This document shows positions 1,638 through 62,823 of a DNA stretch of 64,000 nucleotides, in pieces. The notes under the pieces are model-generated. The model was not told where the DNA came from and did not search any database. It worked only from the letters and a program-made list of their open reading frames with translations. The position numbers were made by a program, and so were the translations under genes. Origin of the DNA: Candidatus Aldehydirespirator sp. GTDB lineage: Bacteria > Actinomycetota > Acidimicrobiia > Acidimicrobiales > Aldehydirespiratoraceae. The DNA lies in the NCBI GenBank assembly GCA_965221185.1, contig OZ244866.1, forward strand, positions 1,366,901 through 1,430,900. Direction: 5' to 3'. The first letter of the stretch is position 1; every line of letters begins with the position of its first letter.

Positions 1638-1812
1638 GGAATCAGATATATCAGATCATCATGAAGACAACAACCTGCCACTCCGATCTCGGCGGCGGTG
1701 GCCTCAGGCTGCCCCCGGTCGTGGCGGGCTCGAATGACGCGATGTCGCAAGTCCGTGGCATTGTGTGCGCCGTGCACACAGCCGTAGACCCTTTCGACCG
1801 AGGGCCGCAACC

Positions 1813-5070
<3,258 letters not shown>

Positions 5071-5118
5071 AGGATGAACACACGGTCCGCAGATTCTACG
5101 AGGAGGGGATCAGACGGG

Positions 5119-5571
5119 ATGATTGATGACACGCGAGAACTCGATCCGGACCGGATGGTCGTTCTGTCGCTGAAGCCCAGATTCGCGGAAGCCATCCTCG
5201 CGGGCGACAAGACGGTCGAACTCCGCCGCACCGAACCGAAGATCGTTGTTCCAACGCGAGCGCTGCTGTATGCAACGACGCCGGTACGGGCACTGCTCGG
5301 CACGTGCGTCATTGCAAGCGTCGAGTCAGCCGACCTGGCAGTCCTATGGAGGGAGTACGGCTCCAGAACTGCCTTGCTCTACGAAGAGTTCCAGCAGTAC
5401 TTCGAGGGCGTGGAAATGGGAACGGCTCTGACGCTGACACAGCCTCGGCCGCTCGACCGACCGGTTCCCCTCCAAGACCTTCAGGCAAGGCCACCGAGCT
5501 TCAGGCCTCCGCAGAGTTTCGCATACGTCGACACCAAGACAGGCGACCGACTCATGCGGATCGCCGCCTAG
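5119..5571 (+). CDS. ASCH-domain (PUA-like fold) protein
   Basis: VVLSLKPRFAEAILAGDKTVELRR matches the ASCH GxKxxExR signature. AGGAGG at 5101-5106 lies 12 nt before ATG 5119. The in-frame ATG at 5074 is an alternative start. Confidence 0.75.
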   Translation: MIDDTRELDPDRMVVLSLKPRFAEAILAGDKTVELRRTEPKIVVPTRALLYATTPVRALLGTCVIASVESADLAVLWREYGSRTALLYEEFQQYFEGVEMGTALTLTQPRPLDRPVPLQDLQARPPSFRPPQSFAYVDTKTGDRLMRIAA

Positions 5572-5634
5572 CCGACACGAAGGCTTGACACGGCTTGGTG
5601 CCTCGCGAGATGTTCCCGCAGGTCAACACGCCGG

Positions 5635-6534
5635 ATGATCCCGTCGACCCCCTTAACCCCACGTGACTCGACAGCCCAGGAGGTGACCGTGCAACTCCAC
5701 GGACCGTCGTCGGCTGGGCTCATGTACTCCGATACCGGGGGTGACGGGCCGGTGGTGGTCTTTCTTCATGGGGTGCTGATGAACGGCACACTTTGGGGCG
5801 GTGTCGTTGACAGGCTGCGCGGCCGGTACCGGTGCATTGTGCCTGAGCTTCCCTTCGGTGCTCACCGCACGCCGATGCCCGACGACGCCGATTTGGATCT
5901 CGGGTCGTTGGCCAGGATGGTCGCTGGCTTCCTCGATGAACTCGACCTCTACGACGCCACGCTTGTGTGCAACGACTGGGGCGGCGCCCAGCTCGTGATC
6001 AGCCCGGGCGGTTCGGACCGGGTCGCCAGCCTCGTTCTCGTGTCGTGCGAGGCCTTCGATAACTATCCGCCGGGCCTTCCCGGGCGGCTGCTGTGCCTCA
6101 ACGGGTCTGTGCCGGGAGGCACCTTCCTGACGTCGCAGCTCCTGCGTCCCCGGCTGATCCGGCACCTGCCGATCACCTTCGGCGGGATGTCGAAGAAGCG
6201 GGTCCCCAACGAGCAGTTCATGAGCTGGATCGAGCCGCTGCGCCACGACCGCAGGATCCGCCGCGATCTCGACAAGTACCTACGCAGCGTCCCGAGGAAG
6301 GAGCAGTTGCTCGAATGGGCCGAACAGCAGCGGGCCTTCACGGGCCCCGTGCTCGTCGTGTGGGCCCGCGAGGACAAGCTCATGCCGCCCGAGCACGCAG
6401 AACGCCTAGCCGAGCACTTCGAGAACGCCGAACTGGTGTGGGTTGACGACAGCCGGACGCTCATCCCGATCGACCAGTCCGAGGTCCTCGCCGACCACCT
6501 CGAACGCTTCCTCGAACGCACCACGGCAGGTTGA
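5635..6534 (+). CDS. Alpha/beta hydrolase (haloalkane dehalogenase / epoxide hydrolase-like)
   Basis: VVFLHG oxyanion region and CNDWGG nucleophile-elbow motif. 299 aa. Confidence 0.75.
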   Translation: MIPSTPLTPRDSTAQEVTVQLHGPSSAGLMYSDTGGDGPVVVFLHGVLMNGTLWGGVVDRLRGRYRCIVPELPFGAHRTPMPDDADLDLGSLARMVAGFLDELDLYDATLVCNDWGGAQLVISPGGSDRVASLVLVSCEAFDNYPPGLPGRLLCLNGSVPGGTFLTSQLLRPRLIRHLPITFGGMSKKRVPNEQFMSWIEPLRHDRRIRRDLDKYLRSVPRKEQLLEWAEQQRAFTGPVLVVWAREDKLMPPEHAERLAEHFENAELVWVDDSRTLIPIDQSEVLADHLERFLERTTAG

Positions 6535-6617
6535 TGGCGACTCCTTCGCAAGTCGCCTCCGGGATCATCCTCGCAACCCGCCGAGCGGAGCCTGACGGGT
6601 GAGCGGAGCTGTGCGGT

Positions 6618-7130
6618 TCAGGTCGGCGGAACGTCGCTGACCGGTGTCGTGTCGGCAGCCGAGAGCTCGCGGCGAAAGAAGAGATATCGCCCTTCGTCCC
6701 AGGTCGCGCCGGTGGTGCTGTAGCCCTCGGACTCGTACAACGCGACCGCGATCTCGTTGCGCTCGTTCGCGTCCAACTGCAGCTGCACGCAGCCCAGTTC
6801 GCGGGCGTGCGACTCGACTGCCCTCATCAATGCCCGCCCGACGCCGAGCCCACGGTGCTCCTCACCCACGTACACGTCCTCGACCCAGCAGATGGCGCCG
6901 TGCAGCCACGCTGAGTAGAGATAGTGAAGCTGCACGTAGGAATGCGCCGGCCGACCGACAAGGAGGAACTCAGCCAGTCCGCGGTCCAGCATGAGGCGAA
7001 CGTCGCGAGCCAACGCCTCGTCTCCGGGCTCGTCCTGACCCCGAAGGTTCCGGAAGGCGGCCATGCACGCCGCAACCTCCGCCTCGTCACCGGGCGTCGC
7101 CAGCCGGACCTGCACGGTCGGCACAGTCAC
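6618..7130 (-). CDS. GNAT family N-acetyltransferase
   Basis: EEHRGLGVGRALM acetyl-CoA binding motif (Q/RxxGxG/A). 170 aa. Confidence 0.8.
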   Translation of the reverse strand: MTVPTVQVRLATPGDEAEVAACMAAFRNLRGQDEPGDEALARDVRLMLDRGLAEFLLVGRPAHSYVQLHYLYSAWLHGAICWVEDVYVGEEHRGLGVGRALMRAVESHARELGCVQLQLDANERNEIAVALYESEGYSTTGATWDEGRYLFFRRELSAADTTPVSDVPPT

Positions 7131-7272
7131 CAGTCACCCTGACGAGCCATAACCGCGTGCCCAGCCACGCTCGCAGCATAGAAACCCCTGATGAACCCCG
7201 CTGGCCCGATCAACGACCAACCAGTCGCTGCCGGGTCCATCGGAGCAAGACCAGCGACGACCGGGGACATCG

Positions 7273-7478
7273 TGAGCGTGACGCCAGCCCCGTGACAAAG
7301 TAGGGACATGGGCATCAACCTCGAAGACCACCTCGACGCCGAGCACCTGGCGGCGCTGGAGATGCTTCCCGGTGATCTGCTTGACCCCTCCGACCTGCCC
7401 GCGGCGCGAGCAACCGTCGACGAGCGCATGGCTCATCTGCCCGACCTCGAGATTCCCGACAGCGCGGAGGTCACCGGC
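7273..7478. repeat. Dispersed duplication, copy A (upstream region plus esterase 5' end)
   Basis: Aligns by eye with 14193-14398 at roughly 80-90 percent identity (not computed). The shared gagcgtgacgcc...gtagggacatgggcatcaa leader is included. Confidence 0.7.
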
Positions 7479-7511
7479 CGCGGTCTAGTGGGGAAGGGCC
7501 AGCATCGATGA
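7308..7511 (+). pseudogene. 5' fragment of an esterase/lipase gene, paralogous to 14228-15190
   Basis: MGINLEDHLDAEHLAALEMLPGDLLDPSDLPAARATVDERMAHLPDLEIPDS aligns to the first ~55 residues of the 320-aa esterase, then diverges and stops. The catalytic motifs are absent. Confidence 0.75.
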
Positions 7512-8044
7512 CCGAGCGCTACCTCGTGATGCCTCGGGGCATCAACGTCGGGACCCGCAATCGCGTGCCGATGGCGGAGCTCAGGTCGAAGTTGACCGGC
7601 GCTGGCTACTGCGACGTGGCCACCGTCCTGCAGAGCGGCAACGTGATCGTCTCCGCCGAGGAGGATGATCCCGACGAAGTCGCTGGCGCCATACAGCGGT
7701 TGCTCAGCGACGAGTTCGGCGTCGACGTTGCCTGCGTCGCGCGGACGGCGAACCAGGTTCGGCGGGTGCTTGAGCGCAATCCGTTGCAGGAAGTCGTCTC
7801 CGACCCGTCGCGCTACCTCGTGATCTTCCTCTCCCAGGAGCCCGACCCCGAAGCGGTGGAGGCGCTGGTGGGGGAGGACCACAGCCCCGAGGCCATCGCG
7901 ATCGAAGGCACCGAGGCATACGTCTGGACTCCCGACGGCGTCTACGGGATGACCCTCTCGTACGCGCACCTCGAGAAGCGGTTCGGTGTCGTCGCCACGG
8001 CCCGCAACTGGAACACAATCAAGAAGATCGTGGCCAGGCTGTGA
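7508..8044 (+). CDS. DUF1697 domain protein
   Basis: The N-terminus YLVMPRGINVGTRNRVPMAELR is typical of DUF1697. 178 aa. Confidence 0.7.
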   Translation: MTERYLVMPRGINVGTRNRVPMAELRSKLTGAGYCDVATVLQSGNVIVSAEEDDPDEVAGAIQRLLSDEFGVDVACVARTANQVRRVLERNPLQEVVSDPSRYLVIFLSQEPDPEAVEALVGEDHSPEAIAIEGTEAYVWTPDGVYGMTLSYAHLEKRFGVVATARNWNTIKKIVARL

Positions 8045-8110
8045 CCGCTGGCCACGAGGCCCGAGGTCAGCCCCGACGTCGGAGGCTCTGAGCCGTCCCA
8101 GGCCGTTTGG

Positions 8111-9181
8111 TTGAATGAGCTGGCTGCGGGCGCCCCGCCCGTGCCACTATGCGGATTCGTGACGACTTCGTCGGATCCTGCGATCGAGCCCCTCGACGGT
8201 GTGTTGCTGGTCTGCCGATCCTCCCGGCTGCGGCGGTGCTGGCATCCCGTGGCTTTCTCCGGGCAGGTTGGTACGGCACCCGCGGCCCGGACGCTGCTGG
8301 GCACGCAAGTCGTGTTGTGGCGCACGCCGGACGGGCGGCTGCGTTCGGCTGTGGATCGATGCCCGCATCGCTGGGCTCAGCTCTCCAAGGGCACCGTCAG
8401 CAACGGCCGGCTCGTGTGCCCGTACCACGGCTGGCAGTTCGGACCCGACGGCGCCGTGGTCGAGATCCCCCAACTGGAGGCCGGGGCGCCGCTGCCCCCG
8501 TCGGCGTGCCTGCAGGTGCTGCCCACGGTCGAGGCGCACGGCATGGCCTGGATCTCCCTGGAGCCGCAGCCGCCGGCCCCGATCCCCACCATCCCCGAGT
8601 TCGACGACTCCCGGTTCGACCGCATCGAGATCGGGGTGATCCGCTACCACGCCAGCGCCGCCGCAATCATCGACAACAACACCGACTCCACCCACGTCGC
8701 ATTCGTCCACTCGGGCTCCTTCGGCGCGGATCAAGACCCGCGCGTGCCGGTCGGGTCCGTTCAACGAACCTCCTTCGGCATCACGATCAGCTACGGGGAG
8801 ATGCCAGTCGCCCGCACACCCACCTCGCAGCGACCGGGCACCAGGCATTCGGTGACCGAGATGTGGCTGCCCTTCGTGCAGGTGGGGCGGATGCACTACT
8901 CCGACGGCAGCACCCACATCCTGGTCAAAGGGTGCTGCCCGGTGCAGGACGGCGTCACCGACGTCCACCTGACGGTGCTGCGCAACGACCTCGCCGACAC
9001 GATCGACCGGCAATCCATCATCGACTTCGAGCTGGCCGTGGAGCTCGAGGACAAAGCCGTCCTCGAAACCCTTCCCGCGGCCTTCCCCCTCGACCCGAGA
9101 CTCCAGGCCCACACCAAGCACGACCGGCCCGGCATCGCCTACCGCCACGCCCTCACCGAATTCCTCGCCGACTCGAGCTGA
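8111..9181 (+). CDS. Rieske [2Fe-2S] non-haem iron oxygenase
   Basis: Rieske motif CPHRWAQL...CPYHGWQF. The start is uncertain and could be further downstream. Confidence 0.75.
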   Translation: MNELAAGAPPVPLCGFVTTSSDPAIEPLDGVLLVCRSSRLRRCWHPVAFSGQVGTAPAARTLLGTQVVLWRTPDGRLRSAVDRCPHRWAQLSKGTVSNGRLVCPYHGWQFGPDGAVVEIPQLEAGAPLPPSACLQVLPTVEAHGMAWISLEPQPPAPIPTIPEFDDSRFDRIEIGVIRYHASAAAIIDNNTDSTHVAFVHSGSFGADQDPRVPVGSVQRTSFGITISYGEMPVARTPTSQRPGTRHSVTEMWLPFVQVGRMHYSDGSTHILVKGCCPVQDGVTDVHLTVLRNDLADTIDRQSIIDFELAVELEDKAVLETLPAAFPLDPRLQAHTKHDRPGIAYRHALTEFLADSS

Positions 9182-45949: not shown

Positions 45950-46543
45950 TTGGACGGCGCCGAACTCCCGAGCTCTCGACCAGTGGAGAGCTTGCGACGG
46001 GGTATGGCGTTCGTTCCAGCGGACCGGCTGAGCAAGGCCGCATTCCTCGACATGACTCTGCGTGTGAATCTCACGATCTCGAAGCTGGAGCCCGTCTATG
46101 GCCCTTTCGGAGTCCGCAAGGGCGTGGAGCGCCGTCAAGCTCGAGATTGGCTCGACAAGTTGGATGTCGTCCCCAAGGCTCCCGAGGCGCGCCTCATGTC
46201 GCTGAGCGGCGGCAACCAGCAGAAGGTTGTGCTCGCCCGGGTGTTGCGGCTCGAGCCTCGAGTGCTCGTGCTCGATGAGCCAACCCAGGGCGTCGATGTG
46301 GGGGCCAAGGCTGCGATTCATGAAATCGTGCGCGGTGCAGCTCGAGAGGGCACGGCCGTCATCGTCGCGTCGACGGAGTCCGAAGAGTTGGTCGAGATCT
46401 GCGACCGGATCGTCGTGCTGGTTGGCGGCGCCCGGATCGCCGACCACCCGGTCTCCACACTCTCCGCCGACCAGCTGACAGAACTGACCATGAGGAAGCC
46501 GGGCGGTGACGACGAGGCGATTCACCACGTGCTTGGCCTCTAG
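45950..46543 (+). pseudogene. C-terminal half (second nucleotide-binding domain) of a sugar ABC ATPase
   Basis: LSGGNQQK, VLVLDEPTQGVD and the following H-loop region are present. There is no Walker A and no first domain. Confidence 0.6.
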
Positions 46544-58491: not shown

Positions 58492-59643
58492 GTGCAGAGT
58501 CCAGTACGTCTCGTCTACCTGCTGAGGCCCACCGTCAAGGTCGGCATCCTTCTCGCGGTCGGCTTCAGCGTGCTGGCGTTCGTTTCGACGCCGTTTCTGC
58601 TGCCCGAGATCGCCGACCACTACGGCATCAGCCTCGGGTTGGCATCGATGATCGGCGTGTTCCAGCTGGGCGGGTTCGTGATCGGATCCTGGGGCGCGGG
58701 ACGCTTCCTTCAGCCTCGTGATCGGGTCTTCGTGCTGGCGTTGGTGGCCTCTGCGATCGCCAACCTCGCCTCCGCGGCCCTGCCAGTTTTCGCGGTGCTG
58801 GTACCGCTGCGCCTAGTCAACGGAGTGGCCCTGGGCCTGCTGGCCTGGTACGGCTGGGTGCAGGCCTTCGGCGATGATCGCCGCATGGGCGATGTGGCCG
58901 TGGCCGGTCCCGTCGTCGGTGTGGCCGCCGCGCCGCTGGTGGCGATGCTGCTTGCGGCGGGCGGAATGCGGCTGGTGTTCGGGGTACTGGCCGGCGTGTC
59001 GCTGGTCCCGCTGGCGTTCGGGTACCGCAGCGCGGTGAGGGAGCTCCCGAGGCACCGGGTCCGCCACCGGGCGGTTCCTGTGGCCCGTGTGCTGCTGGTC
59101 TGCCTTGGACTGTTCACCCTGGGCGGGTCGGCGGTGTTCATCTACGCCGTGGTGCTGGGAACGGGCGACCCTGGGCTGTCCGTCACGTTGATCGCGATCG
59201 GATTCAGCCTCAACGCGGTCGTGGCCATCCCCGGCGCCGGTCTGAAGTCCATCCGCAGCATCCCGGGCCCGTGGATGGCCGCGACCGCGGTCTGCGCGAT
59301 CGTGGTTGCCGCCACCGACTGGCAATGGCTGTTCCTGGGTGCCCTAGTGGTGTGGGGGTTCTTCTTCTGGGCCGCAATCCCGGGCGTGTTCGAGGTGCTG
59401 GCCGGCCGCTCGCACTATCCCGAGGAACGGGTGGGGGATGCCCAGGCGTTCATGGCCGCGGGCCGCGCCGGCGGTCCGCTGCTCGGGGGCCTGCTCATCG
59501 ACAGTGCCGGAGCCACCGTCCTGGGAATAGTTGGCAGCGCATTGATGCTCGCCGCCGCCATAGGCGTCTTTGCCGCGAACCGTCGCCCAACCCCTAGAGC
59601 ACCGCTGACAGGGGCGGCGCTACCATCCGGCCATGACCACTGA
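58492..59643 (+). CDS. MFS transporter
   Basis: 383-aa polytopic hydrophobic protein with about 12 predicted helices by eye. Confidence 0.7.
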   Translation: MQSPVRLVYLLRPTVKVGILLAVGFSVLAFVSTPFLLPEIADHYGISLGLASMIGVFQLGGFVIGSWGAGRFLQPRDRVFVLALVASAIANLASAALPVFAVLVPLRLVNGVALGLLAWYGWVQAFGDDRRMGDVAVAGPVVGVAAAPLVAMLLAAGGMRLVFGVLAGVSLVPLAFGYRSAVRELPRHRVRHRAVPVARVLLVCLGLFTLGGSAVFIYAVVLGTGDPGLSVTLIAIGFSLNAVVAIPGAGLKSIRSIPGPWMAATAVCAIVVAATDWQWLFLGALVVWGFFFWAAIPGVFEVLAGRSHYPEERVGDAQAFMAAGRAGGPLLGGLLIDSAGATVLGIVGSALMLAAAIGVFAANRRPTPRAPLTGAALPSGHDH

Positions 59644-60436
59644 GCATGAGACCGGCGACGTATCAAGGCTGGAGCCGGAGTGGTACCTGCCCACCTTCGA
59701 CACGGTGCAGGAGGAGCGCCAGCACCGCAAGCAGCGCCTGGCCGCCACCTACCGGATCTTCGCCAAGCTCGGTTTTGAGGACGGCGCGGTGGGCGCGGCT
59801 GGTCACGTCACCGTGCGCGACCCCGAGGATCCCGAGACGTTCTGGGTCAACCCGTGGGGAGTGCCGTTCTCCCACATCACCGCGTCGAGCCTCATCCGGG
59901 TGGACTCCCAGGGCGCCATCATCGACGGCGAGGGCGCACTGCTCAACGGCGCGGCGTTCGCCATCCACTCCCAGATCCATGCGGCCCGGCTTGACGTCGT
60001 AGCCGCGGCCCACTCCCACTCGATGCACGGCAAGTCGTTCTCGGCGCTGGGACGGCCCCTGCGCCCTATCACCCAGGACGCCTGCGCCTTCTACGACGAC
60101 CACGTGGTCTTCGACGGCTACAGCGGGGTGGTGGTGGAGCTCGACGAGGGCAAGCGCATCGCGGCCGCCCTGGGCGACTGCAAGGCCGCCATCCTGCAGA
60201 ACCACGGCCTGCTCACGGTGGGCGCCTCAGTGGACGCCGCGGCCGGCGCCTTCGTGGCCATGGACCGGGCCTGCCAGTCCCAGCTGCTGGCCGAGGCCGC
60301 TGGTGACCCGATCGACATCGGTGACGATGTTGCCCGCCACACCTACGCAATGGTCGGCAGCAGCTTGGCCATGTGGTTCACCTTCCAGTCCCTCTACACC
60401 GAGATAGTCAGGGAGCAGCCCGACCTTCTGGACTGA
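59633..60436 (+). CDS. Class II aldolase/adducin family protein
   Basis: AAHSHSMHG metal-binding histidines. 267 aa. Confidence 0.8.
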   Translation: MTTEHETGDVSRLEPEWYLPTFDTVQEERQHRKQRLAATYRIFAKLGFEDGAVGAAGHVTVRDPEDPETFWVNPWGVPFSHITASSLIRVDSQGAIIDGEGALLNGAAFAIHSQIHAARLDVVAAAHSHSMHGKSFSALGRPLRPITQDACAFYDDHVVFDGYSGVVVELDEGKRIAAALGDCKAAILQNHGLLTVGASVDAAAGAFVAMDRACQSQLLAEAAGDPIDIGDDVARHTYAMVGSSLAMWFTFQSLYTEIVREQPDLLD

Positions 60437-60444
60437 CCCTTCCG

Positions 60445-61479
60445 TCAGGGATGCAGGCGGATTTGGCCGGAGCCCTCGGTGACGTCGCCGATGACCGCTG
60501 CGTCATGGCCGGAGGCCCGCAGCTCGGTCACCACCGCAAGGCCCGCGTCGCGGCTGACCATGCCGAGCAGCAGCCCACCCGAGGTCTGAGCGTCGGCCAG
60601 CAGGGTCACCGACACATCGCTAACGTCGCCGGCATCGAGATGCGGCGACACCCAGTCGAGGTTCCGGCCGGTGCCGCCGGGCACCATGCCCAGCGCGGCA
60701 AGCTGGCGGGCACCCTCCATGAACGGCACCTCTCCGGCGGAGATCTCGAGGTCGACGCCCGATTCCTGGGCCATGCGCAGGCCGTGGCCCAGCAGGCCGA
60801 ACCCGGTGACGTCGGTGGCCGCGGTGGCGCCGTGGCGCAGAGCGGCCGCCGCCGCGGCGTCGTTGGCTCGGATCATCTCCCGAACGGCCCTCTCCACCAC
60901 CTGAGCGGGAGCCTCGCCCCGCTTGACGGCCGTGGAGACCACCCCGGTGCCCAGCGGCTTGGTCAGCACCAGCGCGTTGCCGGGCCGCAGCCCGGAGTTG
61001 GTGAGCATGCGCGACGGGTCAACCTCGCCCAGCACCGCCATCCCGTACTTCGGCTCTGGGTCGTCCACCGTGTGGCCCCCGCCCACCACGAAGCCGCCGG
61101 CTCGGGCCGCGTCCTCGCCGCCGGCGAGCACCTCGGCCAGCAGGTCGTTGGACAGCTCCTCGAAGTTCCACGCCACCAGGTTCAGCGCCAGCAGGGGTCG
61201 ACCGCCCATGGCGTAGACGTCAGACACCGAGTTGGTGGCCGCGATGCGGCCCCAAGTGCGGGCGTCGTCCACCACCGGGGTGATGAAGTCGGCGGTCAGC
61301 ACCAGGGCGCGCCCGCGGCCGATGCGCCACACGGCGGCGTCGTCGCCGGTGGCCAAGCCGACGAGCAGCTCCGGCGGCGGATCAGGGGTGAGGCCGCGCA
61401 CGACGTGCGCGAGATCGCCGGGGGCGATCTTGCAGCCTCAACCAGCGCCGTGGCTGAACTCTGTGAGCCGTCGGGCCAT
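60445..61479 (-). CDS. selD: Selenide, water dikinase with an in-frame UGA (selenocysteine) at codon 14
   Basis: Reading from ATG 61479 gives MARRLTEFSHGAG-TGA-GCKIAPGDL, then joins the 318-aa track ORF in frame. TGA at 61440-61438 replaces the Cys of the E. coli SHGAGCGCK motif. GAGAGGGGG is a likely RBS. Confidence 0.9.
61412..61430 (-). promoter_or_regulatory. Candidate SECIS-like hairpin downstream of the selD UGA
   Basis: The mRNA AGAUCGCC-CCC-GGCGAUCU forms a perfect 8-bp stem starting 8 nt after the UGA. A second small hairpin, GCGCAC-GUC-GUGCGC, follows. Confidence 0.4.
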
Positions 61480-61707
61480 CGCAGTCACCCCCTCTCGCGC
61501 ACGGGTGGCGGCGTCCCGCGGGGCAGGAGCCCGGACAGGACTGGACATCCGCAGGATACGCGCACCGCTGTGCAGCGCCCGCGGACTGTGCGCCCCCTTC
61601 GGCCAGGGCTCGGGCCAGCGAGCGGCCAGCGCGACCCGCTCTGCAGCGCCGGGGGACGGTGGCTCCGGCCGTCGAAGGGGCATGGGAGCGGCCGGTAGGG
61701 TGCAGCC

Positions 61708-62823
61708 GTGAGCGTCGATCCCCGGCTCCAGACCCGGGCCACGGAACTGTTCGGCGTCTCCTATCCCATCGTGCAGACCGGCATGGGCTGGGTGGCCGGT
61801 CCGTCGCTGGTGACCGGCACCGCGGAGGCGGGCGGGCTCGGGATACTGGCCTCGGCCACCATGACCATCGACGAGATGGACACCGCGATTGCGGAGGTCC
61901 GGTCTCGCACCGAGCGGCCTTTCGGGGTGAACCTGCGCCCCGATGCTCCCGATCTGGCCGACCGGGCCGACCGGCTGGTGGACGCCGGCGTGCGGGTGGC
62001 CAGCTTCGCCGGCCCGCCCCCCGCGGGGGTGGTGAAGCGGCTGCGAGACGGCGGAGTGCTGGTGATGCCCACCGTGGGCGCCCGCCGCCACGCCGAGAAG
62101 ATGGCCGAGCTGGGAGTGGACGCCGTGCTGTGCCAAGGCGGCGAGGGCGGCGGGCATACCGGCATCATTCCGACGTCGCTGCTGCTGCCCCAGGTGATCG
62201 ACGCTGTGGACATCCCGGTCATCGCCGCGGGCGGCTTTCATGATGGCCGGGGCTTGGCCGCGGCCCTGGCCTGGGGCGCCGACGGCGTGGCCATGGGCAC
62301 TCGCTTCCTGCTCACCGCCGACTCGAAGGTGCCCGACGCAGTGAAGGCCGTGTACCTGGGTACGCCCGTCACCGGCACCGTCGTGTCGAGCAGCATCGAC
62401 GGCAAGCCTCAGAGAGTGATCCGCACCGGCCTCGTCGACTCACTCGAGTCGGCCCGGCTGACCCGCCTGGCCCGCGCCGCCGCCAACGCCTGGCGCTTCC
62501 GGGGCCTCACCGGCATGAGCATGTCGGCCCTGCTGCGAGAGGGGCTGGCCATGAGGCGCAGCCAGGGGCTCACATTCAGCCAGATGGCCATGGCGGCCAA
62601 CGCCCCCATGCTCACCCGAGCGACGATGGTCGGCGGCGACATCGACGCCGGGATCCTGCCCACCGGCCAGTGCGTTGGAGTGGTGGACGACCTGCCCACC
62701 TGCGCCGAGCTGACCGAGCGCATCGTGGCCGACGCGGTGGCGGCCCTCGATCGGGTCGCTCCGCCGCCGCGCCAGAGGCCGAGCGGCAAGACCGAAGCTC
62801 GAGAGGATCCCGCGGGACACTGA
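61708..62823 (+). CDS. Nitronate monooxygenase (NMO / 2-nitropropane dioxygenase-like)
   Basis: YPIVQTGMGWVAG and QGGEGGGHTG motifs. Confidence 0.85.
   Translation: MSVDPRLQTRATELFGVSYPIVQTGMGWVAGPSLVTGTAEAGGLGILASATMTIDEMDTAIAEVRSRTERPFGVNLRPDAPDLADRADRLVDAGVRVASFAGPPPAGVVKRLRDGGVLVMPTVGARRHAEKMAELGVDAVLCQGGEGGGHTGIIPTSLLLPQVIDAVDIPVIAAGGFHDGRGLAAALAWGADGVAMGTRFLLTADSKVPDAVKAVYLGTPVTGTVVSSSIDGKPQRVIRTGLVDSLESARLTRLARAAANAWRFRGLTGMSMSALLREGLAMRRSQGLTFSQMAMAANAPMLTRATMVGGDIDAGILPTGQCVGVVDDLPTCAELTERIVADAVAALDRVAPPPRQRPSGKTEAREDPAGH

Follow-up and report, generated by a model that had tools for sequence, protein, structure and literature searches.

An in-frame UGA codon and adjoining covarying hairpins in selD of a Candidatus Aldehydirespirator genome point to a selenocysteine-containing selenophosphate synthetase

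The window, by which we mean the whole 64-kb stretch of DNA that was analysed (Candidatus Aldehydirespirator sp., contig OZ244866.1), carries on its minus strand a selD gene whose frame contains a UGA codon close to the 5' end. The gene is flanked by a divergent nitronate monooxygenase-like gene (61708-62823, plus strand) and a convergent class II aldolase gene (59633-60436, plus strand), and the order nitronate monooxygenase, selD, aldolase was kept in four 97%-identical assemblies (L081-L084). The features of the gene are given below in window coordinates.

60445..61479, minus strand: full-length selD coding sequence, 344 amino acids plus stop codon, with the predicted selenocysteine (Sec) as residue 14 (from the sequence, its translation, TIGR00476 and the 3U0O alignment)
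61488..61496, minus strand: Shine-Dalgarno-like GAGAGGGGG, its 3' end 8 nt upstream of the ATG
61477..61479, minus strand: ATG, taken as the true selD start codon (Met at -13 common to relatives; onset of conservation)
61438..61440, minus strand: in-frame UGA of selD, putatively read as Sec, homologue of Cys17 of E. coli SelD
61429..61431, minus strand: Lys17 codon of selD, the counterpart of Lys20 in the catalytic loop (U/C-G-C-K) of E. coli SelD
61399..61401, minus strand: internal GTG, the start used by ORF finders and public gene calls for a 318-aa product
60445..60447, minus strand: selD stop codon

Between the ATG (included) and the in-frame TGA there are 13 sense codons (MARRLTEFSHGAG), after which the selD frame continues as GGC TGC AAG ATC and runs unbroken to the stop; the peptide downstream of the UGA begins GCKIAPGDLAHVVRGL (GCKIAPGDL...), and the read-through frame comprises 345 codons with the stop counted. 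The ORF list splits this gene into the 318-aa ORF from GTG 61401, a mis-called start downstream of the Lys17 codon, and a meaningless ORF of 267 aa (61438-62241, minus strand); since the latter ends exactly at the presumed Sec UGA, the N-terminus is hidden in the ORF track. An earlier, sequence-only reading of this DNA had proposed that the 318-aa ORF lacks the SelD N-terminus, that it can be extended upstream in frame to a total of 345 codons and that a plausible ribosome-binding site (RBS) precedes the start. This layout was verified in each of these respects, with GAGAGGGGG located at 61496-61488, apart from the length of the extension, which adds 26 codons to the 318-aa ORF and not the 34 that had been counted. 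Two long ORFs lying antisense to selD or across the intergenic region, one of 441 aa (60373-61698, plus strand) and the other the 267-aa ORF just described, arise artefactually from the high GC content (68%).

The start codon was placed by comparison with relatives. L001, L003, L004, L005 and L084 have a Met at position -13 relative to the Sec codon, as the window does, the AGGGGGTG core of the RBS is retained in L001, and the onset of nucleotide conservation coincides with the RBS and ATG, with L001 diverging through indels further upstream. No promoter or terminator was detected when 60300-61800 was scanned. Metatranscriptome contigs from strains 90-95% similar (runs X25 and X27; window 61225-61533) cover the UGA and extend beyond the ATG on its 5' side, which fits a transcript covering the 13 N-terminal codons, with DNA carry-over possible, and is silent on decoding. 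In the X27 strain the intergenic region between selD and the nitronate monooxygenase gene was ~180-190 nt shorter.

For protein searches of the SelD product the UGA was treated as Cys. The product matched the NCBIfam selD equivalog TIGR00476 at 363.4 bits (cut-off 125), with the match beginning at residue 4, and NF002098 at 349 bits (cut-off 299), while PF00586 and PF02769, the AIRS/PurM-like N- and C-terminal domains, both matched as well. The alignment with E. coli SelD (3U0O) spanned residues 4-334 and placed the UGA opposite Cys17: RLTEFSHGAG-U-GCKIAP aligned opposite E. coli RLTQYSHGAGCGCKISP, with GCK conserved and with the Lys three residues past the UGA as the homologue of E. coli Lys20, which confirmed the statement in the sequence-only reading that E. 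coli SelD has SHGAGCGCK at this position. The GDDAAV, TADF, SDVYAMGG and ATDVTGFGL motifs also aligned with their E. coli SelD counterparts. We identify the window gene as selD, with a predicted activity of selenophosphate synthetase (selenide,water dikinase). Cys17 and Lys20 of E. coli SelD are both reported from mutagenesis to be required for activity. The glycine-rich loop SHGAG-[U/C]-GCK is present solely when the UGA is read through, and the 318-aa version is devoid of the equivalents of both Sec/Cys17 and Lys20, i.e. of the whole catalytic loop.

A scan of one genome per species yielded 80 related loci, in which the homologous codon was TGA in 21 cases and TGC or TGT in the other 59. The TGA forms were the closest relatives (best match L001, 87% identical) and were almost all metagenome-assembled genomes (MAGs) of the Acidimicrobiia/Acidimicrobiales, the rest being a small number of MAGs from the Actinomycetota and one that is labelled deltaproteobacterium. 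Sequence upstream of the UGA was conserved in these relatives, with RLTxFSHGAG kept in frame ahead of the TGA in all 21 TGA-form loci. In 23 TGA-form sequences, the mean pairwise differences over the ten codons 5' of the UGA were 0.15, 0.11 and 0.48 for the first, second and third codon positions, compared with 0.66, 0.71 and 0.68 over the ten codons further upstream, and the Ser codon switched between AGC and TCG/TCC. Differences that fall mostly in the third position, together with the switching of Ser codons, are the mark of translated sequence under purifying selection, and on this evidence of substitution pattern we judge the ten codons that precede the UGA to be translated and constrained at the protein level.

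The region 3' of the UGA is occupied by the following predicted RNA structures.

61412..61430, minus strand: hairpin 1 (H1), AGAUCGCC-CCC-GGCGAUCU, 8 bp, loop CCC at 61422-61420 (fold, RNAalifold and covariation)
61395..61411, minus strand: hairpin 2 (H2), 7 bp, loop GUC at 61404-61402 (RNAalifold and covariation)
61389..61394, minus strand: 3' arm GCCUCA of an outer stem, pairing with UGAGGC at 61440-61435 (minimum-free-energy fold)

H1 begins at the 8th nucleotide past the UGA and is the perfect 8-bp hairpin to which the sequence-only reading had drawn attention, here found at 61430-61412. When the 66 nt around the UGA were folded, a free energy of -34.5 kcal/mol was obtained (z = -4.1 against dinucleotide shuffles, with 0/200 shuffles as good), and the predicted fold is a Y shape or three-way junction in which the outer stem closes H1 and the adjacent H2. 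From a gap-free alignment of 22 UGA-form sequences, RNAalifold by itself returned H1 and H2. Of the alignment cells, 89% were paired in H1, 96% in H2 and 67%, across relatives, in the outer stem, which is weakly supported; H1 and H2 both have five pairs with changes on the two sides. For H1, H2 and the outer stem taken together, 85% of cells were paired, compared with 34-42% when the 3' partners were slid by 1-3 columns; 13 pairs had changed on both sides, and the observed covariation was reached in 0/500 shuffles.

Several of the two-arm compensations alter the protein: Ile AUC with Asp GAU (window, L001 and L079) is replaced by Leu CUC with Glu GAG, His CAC with Val GUG by Gln CAG with Leu CUG, and Ala GCG with Arg CGC by Ala GCU with Ser AGC. 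Because such compensations change the protein on both arms, they argue that the RNA structure, beyond the peptide alone, is under selection. As a control, the same alignment columns were scored in the 59 Cys forms. At least 7 of the 8 H1 pairs were present in 16/22 UGA forms and in 1/59 Cys forms, and at least 6 of the 7 pairs of H2, together with a GU loop, in 21/22 UGA forms and in 3/59 Cys forms; both hairpins, near-intact in the UGA forms and almost never so in the Cys forms, are therefore tied to the UGA. The H2 loop started with GU in all 22 UGA forms, while the H1 loop was CCN across the UGA forms, as imposed by a conserved Pro codon. Two Pseudonocardia loci with Cys-form selD (L013 and L017; columns 36-52) still had 6/7 H2 pairs and the GU loop, and could carry what is left of a SECIS from an ancestor with the Sec form, such remnants having been noted in PMC1794560. 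Scans against Rfam of the whole window at the gathering score and of 61300-61560 at E <= 10 gave no SECIS and chance matches only (miRNA, hammerhead, sRNA); this result says little, because bacterial SECIS elements are poorly represented in Rfam (bioRxiv 10.64898/2026.04.03.716425).

A second Sec-form selD, from a different lineage (L085, 52% identical), has no H1; it forms a 9-bp hairpin, with GUC as its loop, at an offset from the UGA identical to that of H2. The bacterial SECIS consensus of Zhang and Gladyshev (2005) is reported to place an apical loop of at least 3 nt, with a G in the first two positions, 16-37 nt from the UGA. H2 conforms to this consensus, with 33 nt between the UGA and the loop GUC, although the loop, counted from the U of the UGA, starts at +37 and so comes close to the upper limit of what is accepted; H1 does not conform, with 15 nt between the UGA and a CCC loop lacking G. 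On account of its invariant GU loop, its fit to the consensus and its recurrence at the same offset in L085, we think that H2 is the best candidate for the SelB-binding SECIS core, while H1 may be a spacer or helper. The suggestion in the sequence-only reading that H1 could be part of a SECIS thus holds insofar as H1 covaries and is specific to the UGA forms, but H1 is only half of the structure and H2 is the better candidate for binding SelB.

Our preferred interpretation is that the locus encodes a full-length SelD in which the catalytic residue of SHGAG-U-GCK is Sec, specified by a SECIS made up of H1 and H2 just downstream; we put its probability at roughly 90%, with Sec insertion and the SelB-binding hairpin being inferred. 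The proposal in the sequence-only reading that this selD is a selenoprotein gene by virtue of its in-frame UGA was accordingly strengthened by the conservation of the TGA, by the upstream coding signal and by the UGA-specific covarying hairpins. Translation would begin at ATG 61479, and a SECIS within the coding sequence just 3' of the UGA would recruit SelB·GTP·Sec-tRNA(Sec) to the UGA at 61440-61438. This SECIS would consist of the adjacent H1 (61430-61412) and H2 (61411-61395, loop GUC), with SelB binding H2 and with H1 and the weak, UGA-containing outer stem acting as a lineage-specific spacer or helper. A more specific model, to which we give somewhat less than even odds, is that of a side-by-side hairpin SECIS in which H2 binds SelB and H1 is a co-evolving spacer or helper that shapes the amino acids of the catalytic-loop region (Ile/Asp as opposed to Leu/Glu). 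If true, it would amount to a lineage-specific geometry of the coupling between SelB, the ribosome and the SECIS, in a gene unlinked from selA, selB and selC.

Searches for the Sec-decoding machinery were made around selD and in metagenomes. ARAGORN found no tRNA in the 64-kb window, Pfam scans of 40 of the 43 high-GC3 window ORFs found no selA, selB or formate dehydrogenase, and a motif scan of the window for the PLP site of SelA and the G1 box of SelB found no selA or selB; likewise, in the 21 UGA-form loci the 6 kb on either side of selD contained no tRNA-Sec (ARAGORN), selA or selB. Fragments resembling tRNA-Sec were present in the same four metagenome runs whose contigs span the UGA codon; their depths were similar in magnitude to that of the window but did not follow it closely enough for assignment. 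The organism is abundant in the samples of runs X1 and X3, with a depth of roughly 100-300x. When the SelA of L085 was used as query, similarity fell directly from the L085 clade to ~50% identity, with nothing assignable to the window lineage. That the host organism possesses the Sec-decoding machinery is inferred from the selection signatures described above and from reports on Acidimicrobiia (bioRxiv 10.64898/2026.04.03.716425).

Gene order differed among the other loci. Many Cys-form actinomycete loci (L007, L013, L015, L017, L023, L025, L026 and ~30 others) have selA and selB beside selD, with tRNA-Sec there too in those that were checked. L085, obtained by a pattern scan of metagenome contigs for actinobacterial tRNA-Sec, holds a compact selC-selD-selA-selB operon (1830-6734 of MKWU01000395.1); its selD is of the Sec form, with a variant active-site loop that reads SSCAG-U-AAK rather than SHGAG-U-GCK. 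The gene just 3' of this operon (6812-8452) encodes a sulfate permease of the SulP family and could be connected with the uptake of selenium oxyanions. Rhodanese domains function in sulfur and selenium transfer; a rhodanese gene (277-290 aa, at ~2720-3680 in L081-L084) is conserved ~6-7 kb upstream of selD, past the end of the window, and no evidence tying this gene to selD was found in L081-L084.

The best surviving alternative is that the UGA is read independently of Sec, a near-cognate tRNA inserting Trp, Cys or Arg under stimulation by the hairpins, as proposed for insect SPS1-UGA. Stable stem-loops adjoining a UGA can stimulate such read-through (PMC4561486, HRE/SRE), and this mechanism would sit well with the failure to find Sec machinery in the 64-kb window. 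Nevertheless, the codon concerned specifies the catalytic site, at which prokaryotic SelD proteins carry either Cys or Sec and no other residue (PMC4561486; also the 80 loci here), and H2 has the features of a bacterial SECIS, its triloop beginning with G and its offset being fixed, and recurs in L085, where selC, selA and selB adjoin selD. Relatives in the same class, moreover, have the complete machinery (bioRxiv 10.64898/2026.04.03.716425), and we consider Sec-independent read-through unlikely.

Less probable again is the view that the UGA is a genuine stop, in which case either the 318-aa product from GTG 61401 would be functional or selD would be a decaying pseudogene, the 13 upstream codons standing outside SelD. 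Such a reading agrees with the ORF finders and the public gene calls, and TGA is the commonest stop codon here. It is at odds, however, with the absence of the entire catalytic loop (the equivalents of Sec/Cys17 and Lys20) from the 318-aa product and with the purifying selection on the ten codons upstream of the UGA, which was seen among genomes sharing 60-87% SelD identity. Furthermore, no Shine-Dalgarno-like sequence was found upstream of the internal GTG 61401, and the onset of conservation lies at the ATG and its RBS; we consider a stop at this position very unlikely.

Although a single base separates TGA from a Cys codon, it is extremely improbable that faulty sequencing or assembly turned a TGC or TGT into TGA: contigs of four independent metagenome runs covered this position and no variant was listed for it, and the TGA was retained in the four 97%-identical assemblies (L081-L084, one of them a circular 4.63-Mb contig, ENA ERZ26694896, ctg118061) and, together with the UGA-specific hairpins, in 21 more distant genomes. 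A genome-wide reassignment of UGA to sense, as in genetic codes 4 or 25, for which nothing speaks except the in-frame TGA itself, is just as improbable, since TGA terminates 31 of the 43 high-confidence window ORFs, making the recoding site-specific with the genetic code unchanged, and two screens of the window for further in-frame TGAs flanked on either side by coding signal returned ordinary gene ends only, these screens being insensitive to short N-terminal extensions and neither recovering the selD TGA.

Two further observations were made elsewhere in the window. At 46541 (plus strand) a TAG stands between high-GC3 stretches in the same frame, one of 209 codons on its 5' side and the other a 290-codon short-chain dehydrogenase ORF on its 3' side; these are most likely two adjacent genes that share a frame by chance. 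At 1738-5070 (plus strand) there is an ORF of 1,110 aa with an N-terminal Swt1-like HEPN domain and a DUF499 region, an architecture that is defence-like or NTPase-like and unrelated to selD.

Returning to the Sec-SelD reading, its practical consequence is a correction of the annotation. Among the best 120 public protein matches (81-100% identity), 119 were 303-323 aa long and covered 88-93% of the full-length query, the remaining record being a 507-aa call, and all 120 were without the N-terminal segment bearing the catalytic loop. The gene calls of L081-L084 likewise begin at the internal GTG, and the expectation in the sequence-only reading that automatic annotation would truncate this selD was thus borne out. 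Pipelines that use the truncated calls inherit a defective SelD model, and the same calls hide the probable decoding of Sec by abundant environmental Acidimicrobiia. A Sec-SelD would mark its host as a user of selenocysteine, with the known self-dependence that SelD is required for the making of SelD. The modest addition made here is the covariation-supported model of a tandem-hairpin SECIS for a lineage with no published model, along with the clade-wide truncation of public calls, while the tandem hairpins leave the knowledge of how selenoproteins are synthesised unchanged.

Sec-containing SelD has been known since the 1990s. Sec forms make up 19% of prokaryotic SelD genes, with Sec always at the catalytic position (PMC4561486), no bacterial selenoproteins are more widespread than SelD and FdhA, and Sec-SelD was listed for Actinobacteria in 2006 (PMC1794560). 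Within the Acidimicrobiia, Actinomarina has Sec-SelD with selA, selB and selC (bioRxiv 10.64898/2026.04.03.716425). Sec-SelD is thus already known, also in this class, and the arrangement in the window is a variant of a described theme. The selD of Actinomarina resembles that of the window in class, in the MRLT... N-terminus, in length (342-346 aa) and in its selenoprotein form; on the other hand, Actinomarina has marine genomes of ~1.1 Mb, whereas the window comes from a genome of 68% GC (contig ~4.1 Mb), and no SECIS structure has been described for the Actinomarina gene (bioRxiv 10.64898/2026.04.03.716425).

E. coli SelD (3U0O) belongs to the same AIRS/PurM-like fold family, aligns with the window product from end to end and shares SHGAG-x-GCK, DDAAV, SDxxAMGG and TDVTGFGL, but its Cys17 is encoded by UGC with no SECIS, where the window gene has UGA. 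A catalytic UGA with a stem-loop in the coding sequence just downstream is shared with the Sec-SelD genes of Haemophilus/Pasteurellales, Deltaproteobacteria, Clostridia and Campylobacter (PMC4561486, PMC1794560). SelD bSECIS models exist for four bacterial lineages (Mariotti et al., PMC4561486, Supplement S6), with none for Actinobacteria or Acidimicrobiia in that paper. In the Clostridiales model stem 2 is downstream of stem 1, as in the window, and an extra stem including the UGA is frequent across lineages (PMC4561486, Supplement S6); in the proteobacterial models, by contrast, stem 2 is nested within stem 1, whereas the window hairpins lie side by side (PMC4561486).

The E. coli fdhF SECIS has been reduced to a minimal 17-nt hairpin located 11 nt past the UGA, with a bulged U17 and a loop in which G23 and U24 are contacted by SelB (PMC8659212). 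The window structure resembles it in being a hairpin within the coding sequence, in having an apical loop that starts with GU (that of H2) and in having a lower helix that includes the UGA. The two differ in that the GU is at +23/+24 in fdhF and at +37/+38, 14 nt further, in H2 of the window, and in that no counterpart of the bulged U17 is evident in the window. The place of the minimal fdhF element is occupied in the window by H1, whose CCC loop, unlike the fdhF loop, has neither G nor U.
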